Virus record (IMG/VR): IMGVR_UViG_3300021400_004107
Strand: one strand, 5' to 3'
DNA length: 64,000 nucleotides
Source: an uncultured virus (IMG/VR IMGVR_UViG_3300021400_004107)
Lineage: Duplodnaviria; Heunggongvirae; Uroviricota; Caudoviricetes
Shown here one piece after another: positions 29,824 through 55,336 of this stretch (positions within the stretch are counted from its first letter, which is position 1; each line of letters begins with the position of its first letter). The notes below the pieces were generated by a model. That model had not been told where the DNA came from. It did no database searches and was given only the letters and a program-made list of their open reading frames with translations. A program made the position numbers and the translations under genes.

Positions 29824-29864
29824 ATTTGTATAGAAAAATATAGAAAGAATTGAGGGAATGCACT

Positions 29865-31437: not shown

Positions 31438-31984
31438 GGTCAAGACCTGATGTGTTTAACACAGTAGTCAAACACGGAATTCGCGGATCTTATCAAGACC
31501 TGATGTGTTTAACACGGTAGTCAAACGGGATGGTGCAACAAGAGATCGATCGCGTGGTCAAGGCCTGATGTGTTTAACACAGTAGTCAAACAGGCTGTTT
31601 GGTGTCGAGAGTCCTGAGGGCGGTCAAGACCTGATATGTTTAACACAGTAGTCAAACTTCTCTTTCAAGCATGGGATCAGACATTTTGGTTAAGACCTGA
31701 TGTGTTTAACACAGTTGTCAAACGAGATATGGAAGGGTAGAGGCTACGAAAAAGGTCAAGACCTGATGTGTTTAACACAGGAGTCAAACGAGATATGGAA
31801 GGGTAGAGGCTACGAAAAAGGTCAAGACCTGATGTGTTTAACACAGGAGTCAAACATATATGCAAGTCCTGCTCCTAGCAGGCGAGGTCAAGACCTGATG
31901 TGTTTAACACAGTAGTCAAACTTTCGTTATAATCAATATAGCGTCTTTTTGGTCGAGACCTGATGTGTTTAACAGTAGTCAAAC
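31438..31984 (+). CRISPR. CRISPR array: 9 repeats (consensus GGTCAAGACCTGATGTGTTTAACACAGTAGTCAAAC), 8 spacers (17,29,30,30,30,30,30,29 nt); divergent 10th repeat at 32014-32049
   Basis: Repeats start at 31438, 31491, 31556, 31622, 31688, 31754, 31820, 31886, 31951. Confidence 0.96.
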
Positions 31985-41340: not shown

Positions 41341-42168
41341 TTACTGACTTAATAGGTCGGCGATGGAGACTGCTATCTCCGGTGCCTTTGTCGCCGGGCA
41401 ATTTCCCTTACCTGCACAGAACGCGCAATGCTCGCCGGTATGGTATTCGCCCTCGTTCTTAAGAGCCTGCTCCACCTTGACGTTCGTATCGGCAGCCCAA
41501 GCCTTCAGTTCCGTTACCGTTAGCTTGTCGTGTGAAATCGCTCCAACTGTGGGAAGGGTCTTTACGAAGCCCTTGGAGTAGTCGGTAGTTGCCCTCGGCT
41601 GGAAGATATAGTATTCCGCTTCGGTGACATTCTTTCTCTCGTGCTCGGGCAAAGACAGATATGCGCCGAGAGAATAGGCTCTGAGCTGGAAATTGCCCGT
41701 AGCCTTAACCAATGCGTGACCATACTTGAAGTCAACTATGGTGATCTTGGTAGGAGAGACCAGGAAACAGTCGCAAGTACCCCAGCACTCAGAAAGGTAC
41801 TTGGTCATATCGACCTTGCGCTCTGTATAGATCTTGGTGTAACCGCCACCCTGATACAATCTCAAGATAAAATCCCTGTAAGCCGCGCCGCAGATGCGCA
41901 TTGCACGGTCAGCTCTCTTAGCCTCTTCGACAGAGTCCGGCTGCAAGGGCAGGCCAAACGCTTCGTTGACCATGTTCTCGGCAACAGCGTGCGCTGTCGT
42001 GCCTTCCTTAGCGGCTTCCGATGTCGTCTCGCCGTGCTCTAAACGGTAATCTTCGTTTATCTTAAGGGACTTTGTACAGGAAACTGTCCGAACAAGCGAA
42101 GAGGGGGACACTAAAGCGTGCTCCCTCTGGACAATTGAGTTTGAGTTTGAGTTCGTGTTGTTCGGCAT
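41341..42168 (-). CDS. DUF2800-type PD-(D/E)XK (Cas4-like) nuclease
   Basis: HALVSPSS..C, EGT.AH, GTCD...IVDFKYG, QLRAY, C.FC...C. Confidence 0.8.
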   Translation of the reverse strand: MPNNTNSNSNSIVQREHALVSPSSLVRTVSCTKSLKINEDYRLEHGETTSEAAKEGTTAHAVAENMVNEAFGLPLQPDSVEEAKRADRAMRICGAAYRDFILRLYQGGGYTKIYTERKVDMTKYLSECWGTCDCFLVSPTKITIVDFKYGHALVKATGNFQLRAYSLGAYLSLPEHERKNVTEAEYYIFQPRATTDYSKGFVKTLPTVGAISHDKLTVTELKAWAADTNVKVEQALKNEGEYHTGEHCAFCAGKGNCPATKAPEIAVSIADLLSQ

Positions 42169-42430
42169 AAACGTTTCCTTTGCTGTAATTCGTTTTGTAT
42201 AAGTTGTTATCATAAATGCAAGTTCAAAGGCATAAAAGCCTATAGACTCGCAGTAACACTAACTGGTTACATTTATCATTATAGCAATAAGTTATCAGAA
42301 ACGCAAGATTAGGCAGGAGAATTCTTTTGCAGATAGGAGAAAAGCATCTGTTGTTGAGGGCTGCTGTTGGCTATAATGTGTCAGAGACCTCGTTTTCGTC
42401 CCGACCAAGGATCAGAGGACTTGTAACAAC

Positions 42431-42475
42431 AAAATAGAGCCCCTGATCTACCGCGTGGCCAGAGGCTCTATTTTA
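42431..42475. terminator. Terminator at the end of the tRNA array
   Basis: AAAATAGAGCC...GGCTCTATTTT inverted repeat. Confidence 0.7.
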
Positions 42476-42477
42476 TT

Positions 42478-42571
42478 TGGCGTCGACTGCGGGACTTGAA
42501 CCCACACATCCTGCTTAAGGACTACTCACGGTTTAGCAAACCGCTGCCTTACCAATTCGGCTCAAGTCGAC
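42478..42571 (-). tRNA. tRNA-Ser(GCT)
   Basis: Cloverleaf, long variable arm, encoded CCA. Confidence 0.85.
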
Positions 42572-42581
42572 ATAGCATCGA

Positions 42582-43139
42582 TCATCTCGACATCCCGAGA
42601 CGCTCTGCAATCTTTTCTTCGATGTCTCTCATTATCGTATCTATCGACACCGGTTCACAGTTATGGGCGTCACAGGCCACGTTATACATGAACGGGTTGT
42701 CTTCGTAGAACTTATCCGGACTGTGGGTGTGACCGAACAGGTTGATCACGGCTCTGTCAGGATCCTTATCGTATTCTGCGGTCAGGGTCGGATAGTGACA
42801 AAGAAAGAACTGGTGCTTACGGATCTTTAGCAGCTGTGCATAGCTGATCTCAACGATATTCGGCAGCTCAGAGTAAAGTTCGAGCTTAGCCGGGGTGTCG
42901 TGGTTGCCGGCAATCAGATGGATCTTTCCCGGCAGTGCGGCTGCCGTATTCTTAATAGATTCTACGTCAGAGCCCAGGAACATATCACCTAAGACATATA
43001 CATCGTCGTCCGGCTTGATCATCTTCTTCCAGTTTCTGAGGATCTTCTCATTCATTTGCTCAACAGAGTTGCATCCGCGCGGGGCATAGACAAATTCCCG
43101 GTCATGATTCAAATGCATGTCGCTTATAAAATAGATCAT
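42582..43139 (-). CDS. Calcineurin-like phosphoesterase embedded in the tRNA array
   Basis: SDMH..H, LGD, GNHD, CHYP, GHTH. Confidence 0.85.
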   Translation of the reverse strand: MIYFISDMHLNHDREFVYAPRGCNSVEQMNEKILRNWKKMIKPDDDVYVLGDMFLGSDVESIKNTAAALPGKIHLIAGNHDTPAKLELYSELPNIVEISYAQLLKIRKHQFFLCHYPTLTAEYDKDPDRAVINLFGHTHSPDKFYEDNPFMYNVACDAHNCEPVSIDTIMRDIEEKIAERLGMSR

Positions 43140-43171
43140 TTTTCATATTTCCTTTTCTATAGTGTAGTGAT

Positions 43172-43247
43172 TGGCACCCGCACAGGGACTTGAACCCCGA
43201 ACTTCTGAGTCAGAGTCAGATACGTTACCGCTTACGCCATACGGGTA
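43172..43247 (-). tRNA. tRNA-Gln(CTG)
   Basis: Cloverleaf, CCA. Confidence 0.9.
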
Positions 43248-43258
43248 TGAAATGAAAA

Positions 43259-43330
43259 GTGAGCAAACAGGATTCGAACCTGTACCCCCGGCCGTCACTC
43301 GTGTGTGCTTCCGATTACACCATTGCTCAA
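43259..43330 (-). pseudogene. Degenerate tRNA (acceptor, D and T arms present; anticodon arm unpaired; no CCA)
   Basis: GAGCAA/TTGCTC acceptor, CAGGTTCGAATCCTG T arm. Confidence 0.55.
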
Positions 43331-43425
43331 GATACTTATCGGTGTTACATTCTCTTCTTCAGATCATTCCGGACTTCACCTCGGTCAACAATATATCCTT
43401 GACTTTCTCCTCTTTACTTTTCAAA

Positions 43426-43514
43426 TGGCGCTACAGACAGGACTCGAACCTGCATGTCCCGCTAAGGACTGCCTGCTCTCCAAGCAGGTGCTCCACCAAT
43501 TGAGCGACTGCAGC
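43426..43514 (-). tRNA. tRNA-Ser(GGA)
   Basis: Cloverleaf, CCA. Confidence 0.9.
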
Positions 43515-43519
43515 GTGTT

Positions 43520-43604
43520 TGGCGCCGTGCACAGGACTCGAACCTGCAAACCGTTTCCGGTCAAATGCTTTCAAAACACCTTCCTCACCACCCGGACACA
43601 CGGC
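43520..43604 (-). tRNA. tRNA-Ser(TGA)
   Basis: Cloverleaf, CCA. Confidence 0.85.
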
Positions 43605-43608
43605 GTAT

Positions 43609-43684
43609 TGGGGCTCACAGTCGGGATCGAACCGACGACTTCATCCTTACCATGGATGTACTCTGCCTGCTGAGTTATGCGAGC
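43609..43684 (-). tRNA. tRNA-Thr(GGT)
   Basis: Cloverleaf, CCA. Confidence 0.9.
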
Positions 43685-43688
43685 TTAT

Positions 43689-43774
43689 TGGCGACAGACA
43701 GAGGTGTCGATCCTCATCCTTTTGAGACCACTTGTTTTCGAAACAAGGTCAGGAGCCGTCCTGATTTATCTGTC
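43689..43774 (-). tRNA. tRNA-Ser(CGA)
   Basis: Cloverleaf, CCA. Confidence 0.8.
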
Positions 43775-43776
43775 AT

Positions 43777-43850
43777 TGGCTGCTCTTGAAAGAATCGAAC
43801 TTTCTCCTAAGGTGTCAAAGGCCCCGGCGCTACCATTACGCTAAAGAGCA
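43777..43850 (-). tRNA. tRNA-Gln(TTG)
   Basis: Cloverleaf, CCA. Confidence 0.85.
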
Positions 43851-43854
43851 ATAT

Positions 43855-43930
43855 TGGTGATCCCGCAGGGACTCGAACCCTGAGCTGTTCGGTTCGTAGC
43901 CGAGTAGTCTTCCAGTTGGCTTACAGGACC
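43855..43930 (-). tRNA. tRNA-Arg(ACG)
   Basis: Cloverleaf, CCA. Confidence 0.88.
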
Positions 43931-43933
43931 ATT

Positions 43934-44007
43934 TGGAGCGTCTCGTGAGAGTTGAACTCACAGTAAACGGTTTTGCAGACCGATCGCCTTCCGCAGACAA
44001 GAGACGC
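43934..44007 (-). tRNA. tRNA-Cys(GCA)
   Basis: Cloverleaf, CCA. Confidence 0.82.
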
Positions 44008-44012
44008 ATAAG

Positions 44013-44088
44013 TGGTTGGAACACAAGGACTCGAACCTTGAACCGATCGGATATAAGCCGACTGCTCTGCCAGTTGCGCTATGTTCCA
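44013..44088 (-). tRNA. tRNA-Ile(TAT)
   Basis: Cloverleaf, loop CT-TAT-AT, CCA. Confidence 0.88.
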
Positions 44089-44092
44089 GTGT

Positions 44093-44166
44093 TGGTTGGT
44101 ATGACAGGAATCGGACCTGTATTAACCGCGTATCAGACGGTCTTCCTACCATTGAAAGACATACCA
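44093..44166 (-). tRNA. tRNA-Ile(GAT)
   Basis: Cloverleaf, CCA. Confidence 0.85.
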
Positions 44167-44170
44167 GTGT

Positions 44171-44257
44171 TGGTGCCGCCTGAGGGTATCGAACCCACTC
44201 GAGTCTGATGACAGCGGATTTACAGTCCGCTCCGCCTCCTTAACGGGTTACGACGGC
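44171..44257 (-). tRNA. tRNA-Tyr(GTA)
   Basis: Cloverleaf, long variable arm, CCA. Confidence 0.88.
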
Positions 44258-44264
44258 ATATGTT

Positions 44265-44409
44265 AAGCCAAGCAAGATTTGCACTTGCACCTCCGACTCC
44301 ACGCCGGTAGTCTTTGTCGCGGTTAATTACTCCGCCGAGACCGTTCCGGACGCCGCATGCTACGCGCGCTTGATGCTTTGTTCGGACGAGTCCTTTAACA
44401 TATTGGCTT
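44265..44409 (-). ncRNA. tRNA-like RNA with expanded interior
   Basis: AAGCCAA/TTGGCTT acceptor-like stem, GCAAG-TGCAAAT-CTTGC T arm. Confidence 0.55.
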
Positions 44410-44410
44410 C

Positions 44411-44487
44411 TGGACCGTCATAAGGGATTCGAACCCTCTCCCTCTGCTTGGAAGGCAGACATGCTAAGCCGTTGACACCAATGACGG
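44411..44487 (-). tRNA. tRNA-Gly(TCC)
   Basis: Cloverleaf, CCA. Confidence 0.88.
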
Positions 44488-44664
44488 ATAAGGTGCGAGG
44501 CTCAACCCTCGCTTGCAGGGTATATCCCTGGAGTTCCCCGACTTGAAGTATCGGGTGATGGACCTCTTCTCGGTATTATCGTTGTGACCTACGCCTTCGG
44601 GCGGGCTGGTAAGAAGCAATCAAGTGCCCCGAATATTTGGTTAGGAACCGAGTCCGGCCACTGT

Positions 44665-44739
44665 TGGGAGGAGGTAAGAGTATCGATCTCTTGCTTGCAG
44701 TGCCACAAACTGCCGTGCTGCCATTACACTAACGACCTC
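44665..44739 (-). tRNA. tRNA-His(GTG)
   Basis: Cloverleaf with imperfect acceptor, CCA. Confidence 0.75.
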
Positions 44740-44743
44740 ATGT

Positions 44744-44816
44744 TGGTTGCGGAGCCGGGAGTCGAACCCGGAAGGTCCGGCTTATGAGGCCGGCTTGGTC
44801 GCCGTACCTCTCCGCA
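44744..44816 (-). tRNA. tRNA-Met(CAT), initiator-like
   Basis: Cloverleaf, CCA. Confidence 0.82.
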
Positions 44817-44820
44817 ATAT

Positions 44821-44895
44821 TGGCACCGGCACGAGGAATCGAACCCCGGATTTCGGTTTTGGAGACCGTTGTGTTACCACTAGCACTATACCGAT
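44821..44895 (-). tRNA. tRNA-Trp(CCA)
   Basis: Cloverleaf, CCA. Confidence 0.88.
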
Positions 44896-44899
44896 ATGT

Positions 44900-44975
44900 T
44901 GGAGCAAGCAACGGGATTTGAACCCGTGTATCCGACTTGGCAAGCCGGTGTAATAGGCCACTATACGATACCTGC
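44900..44975 (-). tRNA. tRNA-Gly(GCC)
   Basis: Cloverleaf, CCA. Confidence 0.88.
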
Positions 44976-44978
44976 ATC

Positions 44979-45055
44979 TGGTACCCGCAGAGGGGATCGA
45001 ACCCCCGACCTTGTGCTTGTAAGGCACCTGCTCTCCGCTGCTGAGCTATACGGGT
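44979..45055 (-). tRNA. tRNA-Val(TAC)
   Basis: Cloverleaf, CCA. Confidence 0.9.
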
Positions 45056-45185
45056 AGATTTGGCAGCGTGTGCACCGTCGCGAACGGCATCGGAACTGCT
45101 AAGTCGGAAGATCTCACGTCTATTTAAGACAAGCCACCTTCCTATAAACCCTACGGTTTGCTGCACACTTTGATCCTCACTCACT

Positions 45186-45261
45186 TGGTGGACCACACGG
45201 GGATCGAACCCGCCATTTCATGCTTGCAAGGCACGCGGCACCCCATTGCGCCTTCTGGCCC
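45186..45261 (-). tRNA. tRNA-Ala(TGC)
   Basis: Cloverleaf, G3:U70, CCA. Confidence 0.88.
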
Positions 45262-45424
45262 ATATTTGCGTAGCGGAATATGTAAGCAAGGACTTATATC
45301 TCCTCGGAGAATTGTCCAAACCTGGGCTACCGGACCTACGCTATTCTTGAGCAGTTTCGTTTTACTCAAGACCTTACCCTCAGGTTTTTACATACGGGTG
45401 ACGAAACCTTCCGTATGATGCAAT

Positions 45425-45499
45425 TGGAGCTTCCCCAGGGAGTCGAACCCTGACAATCCTGCTTACAAGGCAGGCGCAGTACCGTTGTGCCAGAGAAGC
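45425..45499 (-). tRNA. tRNA-Thr(TGT)
   Basis: Cloverleaf, CCA. Confidence 0.88.
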
Positions 45500-45669
45500 G
45501 TATTGTCTCGAACAGCTCTCAGAGCTAACCGAATGCTCATTCGTCTGTATTTCACCGGATTCGAGATCCGATCCGTCTTACCTGTATCGCTCGGTAAGTC
45601 GCAGGTTACGATTACGGCCTGCTCTCGGTTCTTGTCGCATCGGTCATGCAGTAGGTGATACAACCTTAG

Positions 45670-45789
45670 TGGTGTGGGAGGCCGGACACGACTCCGACCA
45701 TGCCCTCCGGGACACATGTGCACTTAATCCCGTACGAGCGCCAGGGGTACCGATGCCCCGGCTGCGTGTGCTTCTTGCATACTCCCGAC
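45670..45789 (-). ncRNA. tRNA-like RNA with extra arm, ends in CCA
   Basis: GGGAG/CTCCC acceptor, T-like arm, two internal hairpins. Confidence 0.5.
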
Positions 45790-45866
45790 TGGTGTCCGAC
45801 AAGGGCCTCGAACCCTCAAGAAACTGATTTTGAGTCAGTCATGTCTGCCAATTGCATCAATCGGAC
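45790..45866 (-). tRNA. tRNA-Leu(CAA), short variable region
   Basis: Cloverleaf, CCA. Confidence 0.85.
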
Positions 45867-45869
45867 ATG

Positions 45870-45945
45870 TGGTACTCCGACAGCGGCTCGAACGCTGAAC
45901 CGACACTTTAGAAGAGTGTTGCACTTCCAGTTGTGCTACCGGAGC
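45870..45945 (-). tRNA. tRNA-Arg(TCT)
   Basis: Cloverleaf, CCA. Confidence 0.88.
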
Positions 45946-46034
45946 ATTTATGTGCGGTTAAAGTCCCGCAGACTGCACATCCGGTTTAATTTGGCGCCGG
46001 CAGGGACCGTATTATTTTGCTCTAAACCTGCCAC

Positions 46035-46113
46035 TGGTACCCGAGGAGGGAGTCGAACCCTCAAAAGACCCGGATCCTTAGTCCGGCGCATACGCCAATT
46101 CTGCTACACGGGC
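46035..46113 (-). tRNA. tRNA-Leu(AAG), short variable region
   Basis: Cloverleaf, loop CT-AAG-GA, CCA. Confidence 0.85.
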
Positions 46114-46118
46114 ATATA

Positions 46119-46194
46119 TGGTGCTTGCTATCGGATTCGAACCGATACAACGCGAGGTTTAAGCTCGCTGACTCTGCCGTTGGCCTAAGCAAGC
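46119..46194 (-). tRNA. tRNA-Leu(TAA), short variable region
   Basis: Cloverleaf, CCA. Confidence 0.85.
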
Positions 46195-46197
46195 ATT

Positions 46198-46273
46198 TGG
46201 TATCCCTGAGAGGATTCGAACCTCCAACTTTACGGTTCTGAGCCGTCTGCGTCTGCCGTTCCGCCACAAGGAT
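46198..46273 (-). tRNA. tRNA-Leu(CAG), short variable region
   Basis: Cloverleaf, CCA. Confidence 0.85.
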
Positions 46274-46280
46274 ATATTAG

Positions 46281-46342
46281 GACCGCGTGCTCTCCGTTAC
46301 ACTAATCAAGGGCGCCTTCCTGAGTCGAACAGGTCTTCGGTC
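46281..46342 (-). ncRNA. Circularly permuted tRNA mimic (YrlA/Y-RNA-like topology)
   Basis: GACCG - T arm CCTG-TTCGACT-CAGG - closed acceptor AAGG/CCTT - D arm GTGT-AACGGAGA-GCAC - CGGTC. Confidence 0.7.
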
Positions 46343-46417
46343 TGGTGACGCTTCAGGGAGTTGAACCCTGCTTCACGGGCTGAGAACCCGTTTTCCTGGC
46401 CGATAGAAGAAAGCGCC
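46343..46417 (-). tRNA. tRNA-Glu(CTC)
   Basis: Cloverleaf, CCA. Confidence 0.88.
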
Positions 46418-46420
46418 ATG

Positions 46421-46499
46421 TGGTGACGTGTGCGGGATTTGAACCCGGCGAATACCGCCTTGAAAGGGCGGCGAGTTAAACCAACTTCTCCAACACGCC
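46421..46499 (-). tRNA. tRNA-Glu(TTC)
   Basis: Cloverleaf, CCA. Confidence 0.88.
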
Positions 46500-46608
46500 A
46501 TTTTTTGTTTGCGCTGATCGCAGACCCGGCAATTCATGGATTTGCTTTTAAGTCTGTTGACATAATGGCCACTTTTGTCTTCTCACTGTAAGTGAACGAC
46601 CCCGCATT

Positions 46609-46684
46609 TGGTCCGAGTAGCAGGTCTCGAACCTGCGGCTTCCTGGTCCCAGGCCAGGCACTCTTCCAACTGAGCTATACCCGG
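46609..46684 (-). tRNA. tRNA-Pro(TGG)
   Basis: Cloverleaf (C at position 33), CCA. Confidence 0.88.
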
Positions 46685-46690
46685 ATATAG

Positions 46691-46796
46691 AAGGGTTTAG
46701 GTGAGCTTTCCCCCAGCTCGGACTCGAACCATTCTCTTCCGTTTCCAGAAGCGTCCCCCACGGGACCAGCCGGGCTACTTGCTGCACCATGCCCTT
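46691..46796 (-). ncRNA. Long-stem RNA with T-loop
   Basis: AAGGG..GGTG/CACC..CCCTT closing stem, three-hairpin head with GGTTCGAGTCC. Confidence 0.5.
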
Positions 46797-46872
46797 TGGC
46801 GACCACAACGAGAGTTGAACTCGTATCTTCAGCGTGACAGGCTGACATAATAAACCGTTATACCATGCGGCC
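46797..46872 (-). tRNA. tRNA-Asp(GTC)
   Basis: Cloverleaf, CCA. Confidence 0.88.
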
Positions 46873-46879
46873 GTATAAG

Positions 46880-46997
46880 TGGAGGGGAGCAGAGGAGTTG
46901 CACCTCATTCTACGTTATTGACCAAGTAACACACCATGCTAAACCCGTCTGTATCCTTGATAGTCTCATCAAGTCCGTTTCGGTCTTGGAACTCCCC
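46880..46997 (-). ncRNA. tRNA-like RNA with expanded interior, ends in CCA
   Basis: GGGGAGT/GCTCCCC-T-CCA acceptor, GAGG-TGCAACT-CCTC T arm. Confidence 0.6.
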
Positions 46998-46998
46998 T

Positions 46999-47074
46999 TG
47001 GTGGGCGTGATAGGTCTCGAACCTACAACCTTCCGATTAAGAGTCGGCTACTCTGCCGATTGAGTTACACACCC
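46999..47074 (-). tRNA. tRNA-Lys(CTT)
   Basis: Cloverleaf, CCA. Confidence 0.9.
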
Positions 47075-47079
47075 GTAAA

Positions 47080-47155
47080 TGGTGGGCGGTGTTGGTTTCG
47101 ATCCAACCTCCACGGGGCTTCAACCCGTTGCTTTCACCAGATTAGCTTACCGTCC
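47080..47155 (-). tRNA. tRNA-Phe(GAA)
   Basis: Cloverleaf, CCA. Confidence 0.88.
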
Positions 47156-47163
47156 ATAAGGTG

Positions 47164-47341
47164 ACGTTATTAAGTTAAGAAGTCGAGGCAAGGATTCGAA
47201 CCTTGCAGTGATATGCCGGGGCTTATCAGTGATGCAACTTACAAAGGCTGATTCAAACAGCAATACCGGCTATTATTAGGAGCATCTTATCCGCAACTCT
47301 TACACCTCGTCGAGCTACTCAACTCCTTAACTTAATGATGT
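47164..47341 (-). ncRNA. tRNA-like RNA with 24-bp terminal stem and canonical T arm
   Basis: 22 of 24 positions pair between 47164-47187 and 47318-47341; GCAAGG-TTCGAAT-CCTTGC. Confidence 0.65.
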
Positions 47342-47386
47342 TGATCCATAAGGTCCCGAATTTAAAGGCTCGGTCCCACACCTTAA

Positions 47387-47462
47387 TGGCACCCTCAGCA
47401 GGACTTGAACCTGCAACCTTTCGGTTAACAGCCGCTTGCTCTACCGATTGAGCTATAAGGGT
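47387..47462 (-). tRNA. tRNA-Asn(GTT)
   Basis: Cloverleaf, CCA; first tRNA of the array. Confidence 0.9.
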
Positions 47463-47473
47463 GTATGAAAATA

Positions 47474-47487
47474 AATTGTCAAGGTAC
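47474..47487 (-). promoter_or_regulatory. boxA-like antitermination signal
   Basis: GTACCTTGACAATT directly upstream of the first tRNA. Confidence 0.5.
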
Positions 47488-47530
47488 AAATCAAAACCGC
47501 CCGGATCTTTTTAAGGTCTGAGCGGTCTGA
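47487..47530 (-). terminator. Attenuator terminator of the tRNA-array leader
   Basis: ACCGCTCAGACCTT-AAA-AAGATCCGGGCGGT followed by TTTGATTT. Confidence 0.75.
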
Positions 47531-47576
47531 TGTGAAGATATAACGTTTGCAATGCAATGAAAACCTTAATTAGACA

Positions 47577-47720
47577 TCATAACCGCTTTGGGCGTCCATA
47601 CTCGTGCATATCATCGAGGCAGACTTCTTCAGCCGGGGTAAAGGACGCGCGTGAACTAATCGCTGTGTTCAACAGTGATACGCTCTGCCATATAGATTGT
47701 GTATTTCTTAATACAGTCAT
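47577..47720 (-). CDS. Leader peptide, 47 aa, containing all 20 amino acids (MTVLRNTQSIWQSVSLLNTAISSRASFTPAEEVCLDDMHEYGRPKRL)
   Basis: AAAGGA RBS; stop codon lies within the antiterminator strand. Confidence 0.7.
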   Translation of the reverse strand: MTVLRNTQSIWQSVSLLNTAISSRASFTPAEEVCLDDMHEYGRPKRL

Positions 47721-47779
47721 CTTGTCCTTTGTCCTTTCGTTATAATGGTTCGGTAAAGCTTTTTGACTTACCTACTATC

Positions 47780-47807
47780 AATATAGCGACCTTTTTCTAA
47801 AAGGCAA
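47780..47807 (-). promoter_or_regulatory. Promoter of the leader/tRNA array
   Basis: TTGCCT-16 nt-TATATT with the element-typical GC before the -10. Confidence 0.65.
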
Positions 47808-47976
47808 GGGGTTATCGTTACATTTTTTGAAAATTGTTGTAATTTGTGCAAATTGAGCAACCGTGTCATCAATTTGTAATATCTTATCTCACGGCATTGA
47901 TTTTTGGGCTTCCGGTCGCTATACTAATCTCAAAAGCAAGATGTTGCGAGTTGCGCAAGAGAAAGGAGGAACCTAA

Positions 47977-48321
47977 ATGGCTACGTTTCCTGAGAGGCTG
48001 AATGAAGCTTTAGAGATGAAAGGTATGAGCGCTGCTGATCTGGCACGCGAGTCGGGAGTGTCCGAGCCTAACATATCCCGGTACCGCAAGGGTGAGTTTA
48101 TGCCTAAGGATCAACAGATGACCAAGCTCGCTTCCGTTCTGGGTGTCGCCCCTGACTGGCTCTCCGGTAAGAGTACCGTCATGGAGCCTGACACTAAGTT
48201 CAGAATGGACGTTGCCCCGTCTGAGCACGATCTTATCGTCAAGATAAGAAACATGCCTGCCGCTCAAAGAAAGTTTGTCATTGATTTCATCGATTATGTG
48301 AGCTCACGCCCCGGAAGATGA
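47977..48321 (+). CDS. XRE-family HTH regulator, divergent from the tRNA array
   Basis: RL......GMS.ADLARESGVS...ISRY.KG...P; AGGAGG RBS. Confidence 0.9.
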   Translation: MATFPERLNEALEMKGMSAADLARESGVSEPNISRYRKGEFMPKDQQMTKLASVLGVAPDWLSGKSTVMEPDTKFRMDVAPSEHDLIVKIRNMPAAQRKFVIDFIDYVSSRPGR

Positions 48322-48323
48322 TA

Positions 48324-48659
48324 TCACCGCATAGACAAACACTGATCCGATTCGCTTGGATCCGAACGGAGCTCCGGTAACAATAACAGTTCTTTGATAA
48401 AGTCGTCTACTTTATCCCGGGTGTCGATAACCCTCGCGTCTCCTCCGGCTAATCGAATCTCTTTCATAGTCAGTCTTTGAAGCTCTCGTGCTTTTTCGCC
48501 GGGGGCTTTTGTTTCGACAAAAGTTGTCTTGCCCCTGAAGATCACTATCTCGTCGGGAAGACCTGCAGTGCCGGGTGACTCCCATTTCTCTATGAATCCG
48601 CCCATGCCTCTGATCTTATTTCTCAAATAATTCTCTACTGCGCCCTCAGGTTTACCCAT
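48324..48659 (-). CDS. VRR-NUC domain nuclease
   Basis: SPG.AGLPD.....G...FVETKAPG.K.R.LQ. Confidence 0.88.
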   Translation of the reverse strand: MGKPEGAVENYLRNKIRGMGGFIEKWESPGTAGLPDEIVIFRGKTTFVETKAPGEKARELQRLTMKEIRLAGGDARVIDTRDKVDDFIKELLLLPELRSDPSESDQCLSMR

Positions 48660-50388
48660 TAGAAGACCCTCCTTCGAGCGGAGGCTCTTGGGCAGGTAGG
48701 AAGAAATTGTCGTCGATCGGATCTATTGAGCCTTGTGTGTCGGAGTTCACTTCACTCGGTCCCGGTCTTACACTGCGTTCCGGCTTAGGTGATTCCGGAT
48801 GTTGAGGTGCGGACTTTGCGTTTTCATTCTCCTTATCTTCCGTCAGGGGAGCATCGTCTATCTCCCAGGGCAGGTCGACACCTGTATCGGGCTTTCTTAC
48901 CATATCAGACTCTGTATTGTCGGACTTTTTCGGACAATCTCGGACACTTTCGGATTTCTCAGCAGCCGGTTTTGGAGCAGCTAAGGAAGGATCAGCGTCT
49001 GCTACCTGCTTTTTAGCAGGACCTTTCTCAGGATTCTGGCCCTTATTATCGGGCTTGTTCGGGGTATTGCCCGGGCGCTGCTTGAGAGTGAATACCCTTA
49101 CGCGGCCGTATCCCGGAAGCGTTTTCTGGGCGCCATTGACATAGCCTAAGATCTGAAGCTCTCTTGCGATAGACCTGGCTGTCTTGAGGTCCATATTGTG
49201 ATCGGCATTGCCCATCATCTCACACCAGATCTCATTGGTGGAGATCTGCGGGGTCAGAGGATTATTGTCGTCAGGGTTCTTAAGGTACTCGACATAGTGT
49301 GCGTACTTGGATGCCTTGTCCCTGCAGTCCCAGTCAGCTGGCCTCGGCATTCTGAGGAACGTTTCGAGGTCAGAAAGGTTGTCGTCTCGGCAGACGTAGC
49401 TGCTGTTGATCTCTCTCTGCTTGCTGCCGATCTCGTCGGACAGTTCTGAATATTTAATGCCTGCCTTGTACATAGCAACCATCTCGCCCAGTATGAGTTC
49501 GACTTCCTCTTCGGTCATGTCCCAGGCAAACTTAGTCTGTCTGCTCGGATCGCATTCCATAACGATGAATCTTCTGTTGTCCTTATCAGGGAACAGGTCG
49601 CCCTTGTTGTTGGTAGTGCCGACCAGTACCATACGTCTCGGCATCTTCTTTACGTTTCTTGCGTACTTGGGCCTATAGTCATCTACCTCTGTTGAGATAA
49701 ATGCCTTCAGAGTATTTTCATCAGATTTTGAGATCTGCTTCATTTCCTGGATCTCTGCGAGCCAGATGCCCTGGTACAATCTCTCGAGCGCCTGCTCGGT
49801 ACCGAACATGGAGAAGTCCATAGTGTCGTTGAAGAATGCACCGCCGAGCTTTCTGAACAGGGTAGACTTACCCTGACCCTGCTCGCCGGAGAAGACTACG
49901 AACGTGTCGTACTTCATACCGGGGTTATAAGCTCTGCCAATAAGTCCGTAGGTGAGGATCTTGGTAACGTTTCTCGTGAAGTCAGAGTCTTCGCAACCAA
50001 GATAGTCCTGGAACATGGTCATGGCCTTTTCGGGACGGCCCTTTTCTTTCCAGAGCTTCTCTGCAGCTTCAAGTCTGTCTATGAGAGGGTCGAAGCCGTG
50101 CTTCATACACGCAACCGAAACAGACGTCGCTACCAGGTCCAGACTGACAGCTGAATGATACTGCAAAAAAGATGTCTCTATGTCGCCTCTGATGCAGGCG
50201 ATAGTGTAATCTGAGATCGGCTCACCGTTGACATATTCCTCGTTGGACCACAGATTATACGAGCAATCGTAAACATCGTCGATCAATGGAGTTATTGTGG
50301 CCGCGGTGAATACGGGAAGCTTGCCTCTTGCTGTCTTTCTGAATGCGAAATTGTCGGGTATTGCGAATGCGTTATATACTTCAGACAT
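48652..50388 (-). CDS. VapE/VirE-family ATPase (phage replication helicase)
   Basis: PG.KYD, GEQGQGKST, W..EI.E, D.YRPKY, GTTN, RRF. Confidence 0.88.
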   Translation of the reverse strand: MSEVYNAFAIPDNFAFRKTARGKLPVFTAATITPLIDDVYDCSYNLWSNEEYVNGEPISDYTIACIRGDIETSFLQYHSAVSLDLVATSVSVACMKHGFDPLIDRLEAAEKLWKEKGRPEKAMTMFQDYLGCEDSDFTRNVTKILTYGLIGRAYNPGMKYDTFVVFSGEQGQGKSTLFRKLGGAFFNDTMDFSMFGTEQALERLYQGIWLAEIQEMKQISKSDENTLKAFISTEVDDYRPKYARNVKKMPRRMVLVGTTNNKGDLFPDKDNRRFIVMECDPSRQTKFAWDMTEEEVELILGEMVAMYKAGIKYSELSDEIGSKQREINSSYVCRDDNLSDLETFLRMPRPADWDCRDKASKYAHYVEYLKNPDDNNPLTPQISTNEIWCEMMGNADHNMDLKTARSIARELQILGYVNGAQKTLPGYGRVRVFTLKQRPGNTPNKPDNKGQNPEKGPAKKQVADADPSLAAPKPAAEKSESVRDCPKKSDNTESDMVRKPDTGVDLPWEIDDAPLTEDKENENAKSAPQHPESPKPERSVRPGPSEVNSDTQGSIDPIDDNFFLPAQEPPLEGGSSNG

Positions 50389-50490
50389 ATCTAATCCTTT
50401 CTCCGAGATCCGTGTTTTTGGGGGTAAAAGTCCCACTCTCCCGGATTTCGGAAGTGAGGAGAACGGGGCATGTATAGATCGGTAAAATGC

Positions 50491-52503
50491 TTATTCTTTT
50501 AAGAAGAAATCACATTGATATCCTTCGGCTTTGAGCGGAAGCCCTTTGTACGGCTCGGCAGCGGACGCTAAGATTTTTGCTATATCATCAACACATTCAG
50601 TCGGATATTCGACAAGGACTTCGTCGTGAATGTGCATTACCACAGGGTATTCGGCTTCCTGGAGTTTTCCCAGCGCTGATACCAGAATGTCTCTGGCAAT
50701 TCCTTGCACCATATTCTCGGTGAGCTTTCCTCCGTACAGATCAGTAGAGCCTCTGGCGGATGTGTACATGATCTTATTGGTACCGGGCTCGATCCTTATA
50801 TACGGATACACCAGCTTCCTGTGTGATACCGGCAGTTCGATCTCCAGCTGAAATGCATCTGCGTACGGCATTTTGCGGCATCTGACCGAGACCTTTTCTT
50901 CAGGACATCCGGGCACTGCCCAAGTTCTTATCAAGGCTCTTGCTTTGCCGTTCGGGCCGGGAATGACATCTCGCACGAATTCTTCGATCTTGTACCAGAA
51001 GTTCTTAGTACGAGGGTTTGCGGCACGCCATGTGTCGACCATCTTTTTCTCGTCTTCCTGGCTCATGCCGAGCTGTGATCCGCCCATTCTCTCGAATGCG
51101 CCTACGCCGCCTTGGTATCCACAGGCCAGAGTTGCTACCTTGCCGACGGCACGGAGTTCAGCGTTCTCGCCGTGCTTTTCCACCTTGACCGGCTGATGTC
51201 TCAGGATAGAAAACATCTGGGACGCGGTCTCGCAATAGATATCCTTGCCCTGTGCAAAGGAGTCCAAGACCCACTGTTCGCCGGTAAGCCAGGCTGTGAC
51301 TCTCGCCTCGATGGCTGAGTAGTCGGCGTCTGAGAACGTCTTACCTTCGCAAGGTACGAATGCCGTTCTTATGAGTTCGCCTATGTCGGACAGCATCTGG
51401 TATGAGAACTGCGGGTTTCCCATATAGTATTCACGGGCCTTGGCCGGGTCGTCGAAGTGATTCTTCTTCAGATTCTGGAGCTGAACGAGTCTGCTCGTAA
51501 ACCTACCGGTACCTGCGCCGTAGAACTTGAAAAGGCCTCTTACTCGGCCGTCGGCACAGACACATTCCAGGATCTTGTCGTACTTGGTAACGGCTGACTG
51601 TGACAGGGACGACCTGAGCTGCAATATCTTCTTCTTATCTTCCGGGACATTCGGGCCGTCATAGATAGAAGGATTGGACTTCTTATCAAGAGAGCCTTCG
51701 ATGTCTAACAGGTCCTTTATTTGCTGATTCGAATTCTTATTGGCGATCGGCATCTTGCCGTGGTCTGCTGCGTATTTGTCGCACAGGGCGATAAGTGCTG
51801 CCGAGCCGGTCTCCTTGAACTCGTTAGATAGTTCGATCATCTTATGGACCATATCAAGATCGACTGCTACGCCGTGGTCATTGATGCGCTCGGATACCTG
51901 ATACTCGGTAAAGAGCTTCGGGTATAAGGACTCGTGCATCCTCATGAGCATATTCCACACGGCACGCTCCGCTTCCACGTCCTGTCTGTTATATTCCTTA
52001 TAGTCCAGCCAGTCCTGATCCATCGGGATCGTGCTCATGTCTGCATAGCGGCCGGTGCTGAACTTCTGAATGAGTGCCTTGCCCCTCTTATCCTTACGAA
52101 AGTTGAAAGGAAGATTCAATGCTTCGCCCAGTTCATCGAGAGCGCCGGGGAGGTTCAGGTAGTTAGCCAAAACAAGAGTGCAGCCCCAACCCTTGGGGTC
52201 AATGTACTTCTCATGATCTAATAAGGCTTGCGTAGGGAAGAGCCACTTTCTTGAAAAGCATACGCGCTCGAATGAGGCGTTGTGGATTATTTTGGGCTGG
52301 TTAGGATTCATGATGTCGCTCTGGAGCGTAGGCGGAATGCTTTCGCCGTGCGCCAGATCTAAAGTAACGATCGGATCGTCGCCATAAGCATATGACAAAA
52401 GCTGGATACCGAAGACCGGAGACTCGACGTATCTGTATACGCCTTGGTCTCTAAGATTTACATCTGACTGTGTCTCTATATCTATATGTAGTATCTTAGG
52501 CAC
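50491..52503 (-). CDS. polA: Phage-type family A DNA polymerase
   Basis: DIET, HNASFE exonuclease; GTGRF, QLQNL, ADYSAIEAR, GK.A.L..GY, HIHDE. Confidence 0.92.
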   Translation of the reverse strand: MPKILHIDIETQSDVNLRDQGVYRYVESPVFGIQLLSYAYGDDPIVTLDLAHGESIPPTLQSDIMNPNQPKIIHNASFERVCFSRKWLFPTQALLDHEKYIDPKGWGCTLVLANYLNLPGALDELGEALNLPFNFRKDKRGKALIQKFSTGRYADMSTIPMDQDWLDYKEYNRQDVEAERAVWNMLMRMHESLYPKLFTEYQVSERINDHGVAVDLDMVHKMIELSNEFKETGSAALIALCDKYAADHGKMPIANKNSNQQIKDLLDIEGSLDKKSNPSIYDGPNVPEDKKKILQLRSSLSQSAVTKYDKILECVCADGRVRGLFKFYGAGTGRFTSRLVQLQNLKKNHFDDPAKAREYYMGNPQFSYQMLSDIGELIRTAFVPCEGKTFSDADYSAIEARVTAWLTGEQWVLDSFAQGKDIYCETASQMFSILRHQPVKVEKHGENAELRAVGKVATLACGYQGGVGAFERMGGSQLGMSQEDEKKMVDTWRAANPRTKNFWYKIEEFVRDVIPGPNGKARALIRTWAVPGCPEEKVSVRCRKMPYADAFQLEIELPVSHRKLVYPYIRIEPGTNKIMYTSARGSTDLYGGKLTENMVQGIARDILVSALGKLQEAEYPVVMHIHDEVLVEYPTECVDDIAKILASAAEPYKGLPLKAEGYQCDFFLKE

Positions 52504-52708
52504 GAAACTCTCTCCCTTCGTTTTGTTTGTCCATATTCAATATAGCGACCGAACATTACTTTTTCAGCAAGAAATTACGAAAAAATTGCGCGGAAAATTT
52601 TGTGAAACCTGCACATACGTTTTTTGGCGGGGCGGTTTCTTCCGAGTAGGATCCTGCCGTCGGGAAATCCTCTGCCGAAAATTTCGCCGTTTTTGGTCAA
52701 AATCGCCG

Positions 52709-53119
52709 TTTTTTTCGACAACACGGTTAGACAACGTGCATAACTGTGCAGTACGTCTGTAAAGCAATTTGCACAATAAATGTATCGAGATGCGCAACTT
52801 TGCACAGTACCGTGCAATACTGTGCAGCAATACTGTGCAGGGTTGGGAACGTCCGTGGTTATTGCGTTTCAAGGCTTTCTCAAAATTTCTTGCGAAATAC
52901 TGTGCAGTATACTGTGCAGGGGCTTTAAAGCCTTTGTTTTCAAGGGTTTGTGCTATCAGCTGCACAGTATATCTCCATTTTTCTCTAAAAATTTTTCAGG
53001 AAGTGTGCACAGCTTCAGGGAATTTATAGCAACATACTGTGCATACTGTGCAGTTCCACTTCCTTACCTTGGGCAAAGCCCTACGCTGCAAGGGTTTTCG
53101 CTGCTGCACAGTATTGCTG
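52709..53119. repeat. Iteron-like region, copy B; putative origin upstream of polA
   Basis: Colinear with 15-425; same ACTGTGCA motifs. Confidence 0.7.
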
Positions 53120-53304
53120 TTCGGCCAAGTTTTGCCAACGTGTTTGCCTCGATCTTCGGATGCAGTCTGTCCGGTGATTCCTGTTTTAGCCTTTTAGAAT
53201 TCGCCTGTCACTTAAGCCGATAAGGCGTGTCTGAAACGAGAAAATTACATAACTGCTAAATTGGTTACATGAGTTGATCTTTCGCATTAAAGGAGACGAG
53301 TCTT

Positions 53305-54300
53305 ATGTCACGCAAACAAATTAACTGGTCTAAGGTGTTCCCGATACCGACTAAGGAAAAGCTTACTAATTCTATGAAGAAGTCTCTTAAGGAAACAGGT
53401 ATTGAGATCGCAATAATCTTATTCGTCGTTCTTGGTATCTGGGTCTATCGCTGGGTGGATTCTACCGGTGCGCACAGTGCCGAAGACCTCGCAACCGATC
53501 CGTCTGTAGCATCTCTTTTTGAATATCTGGACATTTCGGTAGAGACCTCTGAATCTGATCTTCCTCAAGATTCTGTTATGACAGAACCTTCTACAGGTAC
53601 TGTTCAGATCATGGCCTCGTCTGAGGCAGAGACTACTTCCGTATATGTTCCTTACACTGTGTATGATGCAGCTTTCGCTGTTGACGTTGATTCTCTTGGT
53701 GAGGATGATTATGCCGTAGCCCTTAATAACAACGAGCCCTTTTTCTTAGAAGAAGAGGGTTTTATTATTCCCGATCCGGACAATCCTTCTGCTTGTGTTT
53801 TTGAATACTATTCACCTTTGGACGAGCTTGGTCGCTGCGGTCCTGCTTTAGCTTGTTTATCCTCTGCCACGATGCCTGCAGACGGTGAAGAGCGCGGAGA
53901 CATCTCCTCTATAAAGCCTTCGGGCTGGCAGTCTGTCTCTGCTTCAGATGTTGACGGTGGCTGGCTTTATAACAGGTCGCATCTCATTGCCTGGTCCCTT
54001 GCAGGCGAGAATGCCAATGCACTCAATCTTATTACCGGCACACGTTCTTTCAACGTCGACGGCATGTATCAGGTTTGTGAGGAGCCGGTTTTGAATTACC
54101 TTCGTGATCATCCCGGTATTCACATTCTTTATCGCGTAACACCTGTCTTTAATGCCGACGAGCTGGTGCCTAGAGGAGTCGTCATAGAGGCTTGGTCTAT
54201 TGAAGACAACGGCGGTCTTTCTTTCTGTTTCTATGTCCCGAATGTTCAGTCGGGCTGGAGTATAAATTACGCTACCGGCGAGGCAGAGCCTGTCGTCTAA
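53305..54300 (+). CDS. Membrane-anchored DNA/RNA non-specific endonuclease (DNA-entry nuclease type)
   Basis: TM; YS.LDELGRC, PSGW, NRSHLIA..L.G, NLITGT, YRVTP. Confidence 0.88.
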   Translation: MSRKQINWSKVFPIPTKEKLTNSMKKSLKETGIEIAIILFVVLGIWVYRWVDSTGAHSAEDLATDPSVASLFEYLDISVETSESDLPQDSVMTEPSTGTVQIMASSEAETTSVYVPYTVYDAAFAVDVDSLGEDDYAVALNNNEPFFLEEEGFIIPDPDNPSACVFEYYSPLDELGRCGPALACLSSATMPADGEERGDISSIKPSGWQSVSASDVDGGWLYNRSHLIAWSLAGENANALNLITGTRSFNVDGMYQVCEEPVLNYLRDHPGIHILYRVTPVFNADELVPRGVVIEAWSIEDNGGLSFCFYVPNVQSGWSINYATGEAEPVV

Positions 54301-54326
54301 AGGTAGAGAAAGGATTAGGTAACGTT

Positions 54327-54563
54327 ATGTATTTGGCTTTTTATGACACCGAGGTCGATCTTACTCCCGACGAGGAGAAGAATATCTATTCCGACTATTC
54401 TAAGGTTATGCGAAGTCTCGACATGCCCATGGAGGATCAGGAGTTCGATCAGGCTTCCGTTGTCTCTCATTATCTATATTTCATTGACTCGTTCGGGAAG
54501 CCGTCTCCGGTTACGAAAGACGTGCTTAACAGAGTCAAATTAAGAAAGGCGGTATTATCATGA
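54327..54563 (+). CDS. Hypothetical protein
   Basis: Operon ORF. Confidence 0.5.
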   Translation: MYLAFYDTEVDLTPDEEKNIYSDYSKVMRSLDMPMEDQEFDQASVVSHYLYFIDSFGKPSPVTKDVLNRVKLRKAVLS

Positions 54564-55165
54564 GTTCTTTATCACCATCAAAGCTGTGTGCCGATTTCAT
54601 GACTGAATATAAGGAGATGGAGCAGGCGTTATCCGGGATGGGTCAGACTGTCTTGGACTACGAGCAGACCCTCCCGGACTCTGATAAGCACAAGATGCAG
54701 CTGTGTCGTTTGACACGCAACTACCTGGCTCACGAGCCGGCGGGCTTTGCCGTTCCCTCTGAGGCTATGATTGCTTTCGTATCGGGTATAGCGCAGAAGT
54801 TCTTAAGACAGAAAGCCAAGGTTTGTGATGTCATGACGCGTGTCACGCCTTTGTCTGATTCGGTTAAGATTCACGAGGCGGCCAGACGCATTACGGATAA
54901 ACGTCCCGTCATTCCTGTCATTGATCCTGACGGTGTGTTCATAGGTTTATTCACTAAGGACTCTGTAGTGGATGCCGTATCTCTTGACTGCTTAAAGCGT
55001 GCTTTGTCCAGGCACAAAGAGCTTCTTCAGACGTGCACGACCATGCACTGGCGTGACCCTGCATCAGAGGCTCCGATCGGTTGCGTTTGTGCCGTGGACG
55101 AGAAAGGGAAGTACAAAGGCTTGGTATTCACAGCGCCTGAGGCTGCGCCGCGTAAGACACAATAA
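54560..55165 (+). CDS. CBS-domain-containing protein
   Basis: V.DVMT, IPVID..G..IG..T..S pattern. Confidence 0.6.
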   Translation: MSSLSPSKLCADFMTEYKEMEQALSGMGQTVLDYEQTLPDSDKHKMQLCRLTRNYLAHEPAGFAVPSEAMIAFVSGIAQKFLRQKAKVCDVMTRVTPLSDSVKIHEAARRITDKRPVIPVIDPDGVFIGLFTKDSVVDAVSLDCLKRALSRHKELLQTCTTMHWRDPASEAPIGCVCAVDEKGKYKGLVFTAPEAAPRKTQ

Positions 55166-55336
55166 TAAACTCCCCGGAGGGCGGGCCCCGTTCTTCCCGT
55201 GCTACCGAGGAGCTGTTTAAGACTTGGATTAGATGTGTCTTATGTACATCTTAGCTACGTTCTGTAATTTTTTCAAGTTTTTGTTTTTGATCACATATTG
55301 CAGATAAGAAGGATCCTATAGGAGGAAAGTAAATTT

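Follow-up and report, generated by a model that had tools for sequence, protein, structure and literature searches.

Amino-acid operons are headed by attenuators such as the trpL, hisL, pheL, thrL, and ilv leaders, and T-boxes, which need no open reading frame (ORF), bind uncharged tRNA directly by means of their specifier loop together with a conserved bulge, the T-box bulge. Why phages carry near-complete sets of tRNA genes is debated, with codon usage, the replacing of host tRNAs that have been degraded, and evasion of defenses that cleave tRNA as the proposed reasons, and to our knowledge the regulation of phage tRNA genes is largely unknown. Among the leader-peptide transcription attenuators, those of amino-acid operons are treated in two reports (PMC1183508, PMC3082878). 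According to a third report, bmrB-bmrCD of Bacillus subtilis comprises a small ORF, three alternative stem-loops, and an intrinsic terminator; translation of the ORF is required, read-through rises with general disturbance of protein synthesis, and rare codons affect the decision (PMC4191407). In mycobacteria, knocking down tRNAs, tRNA synthetases, and genes for amino-acid synthesis activates the upstream ORF (uORF) attenuator of whiB7 (PMC10274678), stalling in the uORF is thought to give antitermination (PMC10274678, PMC10287673), and VapC5 strongly upregulates whiB7 (PMC10287673). The logic of a translation-stress uORF attenuator is already described, and the statement in a preliminary description of the locus studied here that no equivalent was known does not stand: both the whiB7 (PMC10274678) and bmrB (PMC4191407) uORF attenuators answer general translation trouble. 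In full-text searches of the literature, no report turned up in which a switch of this kind precedes tRNA genes or belongs to a phage.

The window (the whole 64,000-nucleotide stretch of DNA that was analyzed) is a portion of a large phage-like element and encodes a terminase large subunit, a tail protein, a sigma factor, an integrase, and a transposase. Its source is a large uncultured gut phage, and what follows draws on the sequence of this single lineage. Positions 41655-57436 are identical to 15.8 kb of a metagenome contig 126 kb long, and this stretch is present in sequencing runs of animal gut and rumen metagenomes belonging to nine studies (20 of the 24 records listed). An array of 32 tRNA genes, together covering all 20 amino acids, occupies 42478-47462 on the minus strand and begins with tRNA-Asn(GTT) (47462-47387, minus strand). 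A metallophosphoesterase and a DUF2800 nuclease are encoded within and beyond the array, and an intron-containing tRNA, sought in the 231-nt gap past tRNA-Asn, was not found there. Upstream lies a replication block, also on the minus strand, with a family-A DNA polymerase (52503-50491), a VapE-type helicase (50436-48652), and a weak match to VRR-NUC (48659-48324). A lone plus-strand gene for an XRE-type helix-turn-helix (HTH) protein (47977-48321; HTH_3, E 9.8e-12) is divergent from the leader of the array, and its product is a possible regulator of the control region that the two share.

In this leader, read on the minus strand, the preliminary description had placed a promoter, a ribosome binding site, a 47-codon ORF, a hairpin, and the first tRNA gene, and we found every one of these elements in its place. 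A promoter-like site (47780-47807) is followed by two tandem AAAGGA motifs resembling Shine-Dalgarno (SD) sequences (47737-47732 and 47730-47725, 11 and 4 nt before the ATG), by an ORF that runs from ATG through 47 sense codons to TGA (47577-47720), and by a terminator-like hairpin with a U tract (47487-47533), and tRNA-Asn starts 24 nt past the U tract. A recount of the ORF gave the same 38 distinct codons and all 20 amino acids as first reported; Ser, the most frequent residue (6 of 47), is encoded there by five different codons.

Similarly to the attenuators of amino-acid operons, the phage leader combines a short ORF with a putative terminator and an antiterminator predicted to be mutually exclusive, the ORF ends at the antiterminator arm, where the position of a ribosome would choose the fold, and a possible region 1 further upstream would pair with region 2. 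Unlike them, it has no run of codons for a single amino acid, which places it outside the amino-acid-specific type; it precedes tRNAs rather than biosynthetic enzymes, its ORF is long at 47 codons, its region 1 is predicted in the 5' UTR and not within the ORF, and it matched no leader in Rfam. With bmrB it shares a small ORF, alternative stem-loops, and a host that uses SD sequences, and its hairpin would correspond to the intrinsic terminator of bmrB, whereas bmrB controls a drug transporter in a bacterium and is induced by antibiotics, and the two have no sequence similarity. With whiB7 it would share the logic of sensing general decoding trouble; however, the whiB7 uORF is enriched for alanine, its output is a transcription factor, its host is an actinobacterium, and it neither belongs to a phage nor controls tRNA genes. 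A T-box is likewise a terminator/antiterminator switch in a leader that reports the state of tRNA, but the phage leader matched no T-box model (E up to 1) and the bulge in its predicted antiterminator is one base only. By analogy, the leader appears to match the general translation-stress kind of attenuator better than the amino-acid-specific kind, and the leader ORF with a start codon and an SD-like motif that characterizes the general class is present in the sequence.

We tentatively propose that the locus is a ribosome-mediated transcription attenuator of the leader-peptide type heading a phage tRNA operon, which we regard as the best single explanation while stopping just short of calling it probable; that a two-state RNA precedes the array is, judging from modeled folds, likely. 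Transcription would start near 47780-47807 and would have to pass the hairpin and U tract (47533-47487) to reach tRNA-Asn and the 31 other tRNAs. Region 2 (47594-47574) would pair with region 3 to form an antiterminator that excludes the terminator. A ribosome that has arrived at the stop codon would cover region 2, the terminator would form, and part of the transcripts would end, whereas a ribosome delayed earlier in the ORF would leave region 2 free, and the antiterminator would let transcription continue into the tRNA genes. Since the ORF lacks a single-codon run and every amino acid is represented in it, general decoding speed would be what is sensed, rather than a single amino acid. From this arrangement we infer the translation of the ORF, termination at the hairpin, control by the ribosome, and the physiological signal.

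The alternative pairing, as modeled, is the strongest part of the case. Region 3, ACAUCAGACCGCU (47521-47533, minus strand), is common to the antiterminator, where it pairs with region 2, and to the terminator, where it pairs with region 4. Region 2, CGCCCAAAGCGGUUAUGAUGU (47574-47594, minus strand), consists of the final six ORF codons with the stop and three bases, and would form the 5' arm of the antiterminator. Within it, AGCGGUUAUGAUGU (47587-47574), which includes the stop codon, pairs with region 3 (47533-47521) in a helix of 6 bp, a U:G pair, and 6 bp, in agreement with the pairing of ORF end and terminator 5' arm that had been described earlier; our computation of the competing fold adds a single bulged A to these 13 pairs. 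The CGCCC of region 2 (47594-47590) also pairs with the GGGCG of the terminator 3' arm, and a repeat search identified region 2 as a near-repeat of that arm (family D1, 81%).

When the 118 nt between codon 40 and the U tract were folded, the antiterminator, extended by this CGCCC pairing, came out as the minimum-energy structure (pair probabilities 0.80-0.93). When the hairpin was held fixed and the 65 nt upstream were shuffled, the pairing probability of the terminator was 0.07 with the real upstream sequence vs. a mean of 0.75 with shuffled sequence, and a probability as low was reached in 3 of 1000 shuffles and with 6 of 1000 natural 65-nt segments of the window; these values, like every chance estimate in this study, are post hoc, having been computed after the feature had been picked. 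The whole leader (47773-47480) is bistable, at -75.7 kcal/mol with the antiterminator vs. -74.7 kcal/mol with the terminator, and the ensemble shares of the untranslated full leader are 0.65 and 0.35, respectively. In silico, then, the antiterminator excludes the terminator.

The overlap of ORF and switch is seen in the predicted geometry, with the stop codon (47579-47577) inside region 2. When the RNA was left free only from 47573-47560 on, as with a ribosome at the stop, the terminator folded in the model; when it was free from 47660, 47620, or 47600 on, as with a stall upstream, the antiterminator was predicted with 12 of 12 pairs and the terminator core with 0 of 6. The geometry modeled in these masked folds therefore does what a ribosome-mediated attenuator requires. 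The earlier proposal that ribosome position sets the switch thus fits both the layout and the masked folds, and its remaining parts, namely translation, termination, and the response to stalling, are presumptive. A predicted region 1, CAUUAUAAC (47739-47747, minus strand, in the 5' UTR), pairs with GUUAUGAUG of region 2 in minimum-energy folds. This helix has 9 of 9 pairs in all folds of the growing transcript up to 47533, after which the optimum shifts to regions 2 and 3. It would make a region 1 in the classical sense and a possible anti-antiterminator, and is modeled as weak and A-U-rich, around a loop of ~155 nt.

The hairpin itself (-17.3 kcal/mol, z -3.2, none of 200 shuffles as good) has a GC core, CCGCUC/GGGCGG (47525-47520 with 47502-47497), which together with the inner stem contributes -11.0 kcal/mol, and it ends in the tail UUUUGAUUUG (47496-47487). 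It is not a textbook terminator, and a simple terminator scan passed it over, probably on account of the loop, which is partly paired and 17 nt long where the scan accepts no more than 8. The remainder of the leader folds no better than shuffled sequence (z -1.0, 33 of 200 as good), and Rfam models searched over 42000-48500 with E up to 1 gave tRNA-related matches only, with no riboswitch, T-box, or leader family; both results speak against a riboswitch-like sensor.

These observations bear on the chief alternative, possible if somewhat unlikely in our estimate, namely that the two-state RNA is real and is not read by a ribosome, the ORF being a chance open frame. In that case the hairpin would act as a leaky terminator, as an element that processes or stabilizes the tRNA precursor at its 5' end, or as a terminator conditional on some other factor, be it a phage or host RNA-binding protein, RNA polymerase speed, the NTP level, or an antitermination complex. 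The coexistence of both folds in the untranslated leader (P 0.65 and 0.35) is in keeping with such a switch, as are the phage's own sigma factor and the adjacent HTH regulator, which offer other means of control. It is harder to reconcile with an upstream leader that shows no significant structure for a ligand or protein pocket (z -1.0) and matches no riboswitch, T-box, or leader family (E up to 1).

Much of the weighing between this alternative and the attenuator falls to the ORF. The leader peptide belongs to no Pfam or PHROG family, has no homologue of 25-83 residues in 5.8 billion protein clusters, and gave no tblastn match in 50,697 phage records. Its codon-usage score of -0.21 per codon is below 99.7% of windows from real genes (mean +0.25) and mid-range among spurious ORFs (mean -0.26, n = 349), and its composition is led by Ser, Leu, Arg, and Thr, six-codon amino acids among them, as in a random frame. 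The ORF thus looks non-coding and without homologues, as a chance open frame would; a peptide selected for codon diversity would look alike, and codon usage does not separate the hypotheses. The genes of this phage have strong SD sequences, mostly AAGGAG or GGAGG ~7-10 nt upstream, and in a comparison with the regions upstream of 37 other ORFs the SD-like motifs of the leader are weaker and their spacing is unlike that of most genes here. When the 243-nt leader was shuffled 5000 times, an ATG ORF of at least 40 codons arose in 11.2% of shuffles, a frequency that again suits a chance frame; with an SD-like 4-mer added, it arose in 1.4%. An ATG ORF with an SD-like motif and with its stop in the antiterminator arm or at most 12 nt before it arose in 0.3%, and this combination argues for an ORF that belongs to the switch, as the attenuator would have it.

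Strain variants of the locus were available in contigs from three DNA runs (X7, X12, and X13) of three other studies, and the following counts are among the differences listed. The leader (47463-47773) carries 2, 2, and 1 substitutions in the three strains (0.3-0.6%), vs. a divergence of 1.7-4.8% in the flanks, that is, in the HTH gene (2.9, 4.3, and 1.7%) and in the Asn-Phe spacer past tRNA-Asn (3.5 and 4.8%). Changes in the HTH gene fall at third codon positions in 9 of 10 cases in X7 and 14 of 15 in X12. For leader vs. flanks, Fisher's test gave p = 0.017 (X7), 0.0009 (X12), and 0.13 (X13), values that are not independent, as the strains share ancestry. Contig totals exceed the placed differences by 1 in X7 and by 10 in X12, and the unplaced differences are taken to lie in tRNA, where contigs of foreign tRNA swamp the share threshold.

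In each of the three variant strains the A run in the hairpin loop is shorter by one A (47508), the stems are untouched, and in each variant the two folds lie within 1.3 kcal/mol of each other. The sole listed substitution within the ORF (47667, Asn codon 18) is synonymous, and the frame is intact in four strains. At third positions of the ORF, 0-1 changes are seen among the differences listed, fewer than the 2.0-5.7 that the HTH gene would predict, a deficit that indicates constraint on the nucleotides themselves and not only on a peptide. Synonymous sites of the ORF are thus conserved like the rest of the leader, and such constraint at the level of RNA or DNA is also what a switch that no ribosome reads would predict.

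Diverged relatives of the leader were sought across IMG/VR, one-genome-per-species genomes, metagenome contigs, and phage and plasmid records, and only near-identical strains were recovered. The VapE helicase had no relative in IMG/VR and none in one-genome-per-species contigs; in metagenome contigs it gave five loci, one of them identical to the window, and the other four contain no tRNAs. One of these (L002, VapE 76% identical) keeps the order of VapE and HTH gene and ends 55 nt past the HTH start, with unlike sequence upstream; another (L003, 67%) is represented by 1.2 kb of a 36.8-kb contig, with no tRNA in that part; in the remaining two (L004 and L005, 54%) the HTH gene stands in a different context and similarity stops at 47954. 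The DNA polymerase gave 80 loci in IMG/VR at 24-39% identity, of which 60 were scanned for tRNAs; only four contained tRNA genes, which three loci carry within their first 1.2 kb and the fourth (L049) ~6.8 kb beyond the polymerase match, positions uninformative for the leader. In the same database the HTH protein had one weak match only and the terminase no match, and a T-arm 21-mer hit 118 loci, none similar past the tRNA. Exact leader patterns were absent from IMG/VR (the first pattern included the strain-variable A run), as was an exact leader pattern from species genomes. Neither the leader nor the peptide had a BLAST match among phage records, and in other BLAST searches against phages and against plasmids the tRNA alone matched.

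That all statistics are post hoc and that no diverged relatives exist in these searches to show conservation are the points in favor of a further reading, in which the promoter alone is functional and everything else (ORF, hairpin, and complementarity) is coincidence, singled out by a reader in search of attenuators. We consider it improbable: it would require that two nominally separate rare features coincide (0.3-0.6% for the fold and 0.3% for the ORF), it is at odds with a leader whose conservation in three strains exceeds that of its flanks several-fold, and it leaves a hairpin with a z-score of -3.2 to chance.

For the attenuator as proposed, the origin of the transcript and its passage through the hairpin are central. 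The promoter-like site consists of a -35 element TTGCCT (47807-47802), a 16-nt spacer, and a -10 element TATATT (47785-47780), and matches the consensus at 9 of 12 positions; consensus promoter matches in the region are not above chance (4 found vs. 6.0 +/- 2.6 expected). The -10 element sits inside a 12-mer, GGTCGCTATATT (47791-47780). This 12-mer, GGTCGCTATAYT, has exactly three copies in 64 kb, at 47791-47780 (minus strand) before the leader, at 47914-47925 (plus strand) before the HTH gene, where it forms part of a promoter-like site (47897-47925, plus strand), and at 52550-52539 (minus strand) before the DNA polymerase. All three are directed at the gene or operon that they precede, and together they resemble a single class of phage promoter or operator. 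Since the 12-mer recurs at three gene-proximal sites, the leader promoter has independent support.

Transcription of the region is represented in one metatranscriptome (X9, from a sample that also provided DNA), with contigs covering 47518-47785, 47369-47544, and 47100-47390, the second of which bridges from before the hairpin into tRNA-Asn. This library held no contigs over 47786-48177, a weak hint of a transcript boundary, and the uppermost contig reaches 47785, ~12 nt upstream of the start expected from the -10 element. Contig depth past the first tRNA is 7.76, not below the 6.1 of the leader, contig depth being a poor measure. The contigs fit a transcript that begins near the promoter with partial read-through of the hairpin, strand, ends, and level being unreadable from them.

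Between the hairpin and the first tRNA, the consensus scan found no promoter-like site; a perfect TTGACA is present at 47482-47477, with no acceptable -10 element at 16-18 nt, and no additional copy of the 12-mer occurs inside the tRNA array. Because there is no separate promoter-like site in this interval, the array seems, on sequence grounds, to depend on passage through the hairpin, and a strong constitutive terminator at this position would silence 32 tRNA genes. Very improbable, finally, is an ordinary gene for a small phage protein with its own terminator, the tRNAs being reached by read-through or from an unrecognised promoter: the promoter, the SD-like motif, the ATG, a frame intact in four strains, the hairpin and U tract, and the synonymous nature of the single ORF substitution (47667, Asn codon 18) would suit it, but the peptide has no family or homologue, its codon usage is unlike that of 99.7% of windows from phage genes, the complementarity of the ORF end to the terminator arm is left unexplained, and the scan offers no promoter-like site from hairpin to tRNA.

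Beyond the attenuator as such, the preliminary description had seen in the ORF a sensor for all amino acids at once, and of this claim the presence of all 20 stood up. All 20 amino acids also occur in 33 of 2796 47-residue windows of the real proteins of this phage (1.2%), in 3.2% of random codon strings, and in one of the 38 ORFs with an ATG start and 44-50 codons that the window contains over its six frames, and at least 38 distinct codons are found in 1.9% of random codon strings. The support for the pan-amino-acid property is this chance value of 1-3%, and the composition of the ORF is that of a random frame. By standard wobble rules the array reads ~54-55 of 61 codons and 45 of 47 codons of the leader ORF, and such matching of ORF codons to array anticodons has no discriminating power. 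The idea that the leader works as a test strip for decoding as a whole, its frame kept so as to hold every amino acid and many codons, is a doubtful and, in our judgment, unlikely elaboration. If it held, the loss of almost any tRNA, whether to host anticodon nucleases, to degradation of host tRNAs during infection, or to starvation, would slow the ribosome before the antiterminator is masked. The phage would then raise the transcription of its own full tRNA set, a homeostatic feedback on tRNA supply.

If the proposed attenuator is real, leader-peptide attenuation, so far a matter of amino-acid and drug-resistance genes in bacteria, would extend to tRNA genes and to phages. The phage would measure decoding capacity and answer with its own tRNAs, and phage tRNA arrays would be directly linked to the host defenses that target tRNA, a link that simple reporters could test. 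Were the leader in addition a sensor of every tRNA, and were similar leaders to exist in unrelated phage clades, it would represent a widespread and undescribed principle in the control of viral tRNA genes.

The 12-mer GGTCGCTATAYT is present in three exact copies in the window, each just upstream of a different transcription unit and directed toward it. One copy (47780-47791, minus strand) precedes the tRNA leader, the region comprising a promoter-like site, a 47-codon ORF and a terminator-like hairpin ahead of the tRNA array; another (47914-47925, plus strand) precedes the divergent XRE-type HTH gene, and the third (52539-52550, minus strand) precedes the family A DNA polymerase gene. When up to two mismatches are allowed, the number of matches to GGTCGCTATAYT rises to 13, against 7.4 expected. 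The 12-mer probably marks a single type of promoter or operator used by the phage, which itself encodes both an RNA polymerase sigma factor (17307-18359, plus strand; phrog_351, E 7e-58), the gene for which lies immediately 3' of the large tail protein gene, and the HTH protein.

The tRNA array (42478-47462) includes tRNA-Lys(CTT) and lacks tRNA-Lys(TTT), and lysine in the long ORFs of the phage is encoded by 713 AAG versus 235 AAA codons. The array also carries tRNA-Ile(TAT), only one tRNA with a CAT anticodon, and a minus-strand calcineurin-like metallophosphoesterase gene (42582-43139) flanked by tRNA-Gln (43172-43246) and the last tRNA-Ser (42478-42571). tRNA-Asn and tRNA-Phe are 231 nt apart, and the intervening gap (47156-47386) is an insertion/deletion polymorphism among strain variants assembled from DNA runs of other studies: run X13 has 39 different bases in its place, and another contig, from run X12, skips it. 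Within the gap, a tRNA-like T arm (GGTTCGAATCC flanked by complementary 5-mers) is found at approximately 47200-47180 and acceptor pairing is possible; neither ARAGORN, with introns also allowed, nor Rfam identified a tRNA in this interval.

The metagenome contigs L004 and L005 carry an HTH gene nearly identical to that of the window (86% DNA identity over 47954-48323) in a different context, so this gene appears to be mobile between elements. In both contigs it is co-oriented with a shortened VapE-like ORF of 211 residues (908-1252 and 1299-1934, respectively, in L005), followed by a 925-residue ORF that, judging by its sequence, resembles a type IIG restriction-modification enzyme. A 34-nt sequence present twice in the window (31723-31756 and 31789-31822) also has a match in L005, at 91%. 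The window further encodes a transposase (29850-31265; phrog_506) and a tyrosine-type integrase (37297-38502; phrog_1), and the element may be both temperate and mosaic. The window also contains an inverted repeat of approximately 360 bp (86% identity), with one copy at the window start (65-425) and the other upstream of the DNA polymerase operon (52760-53119).
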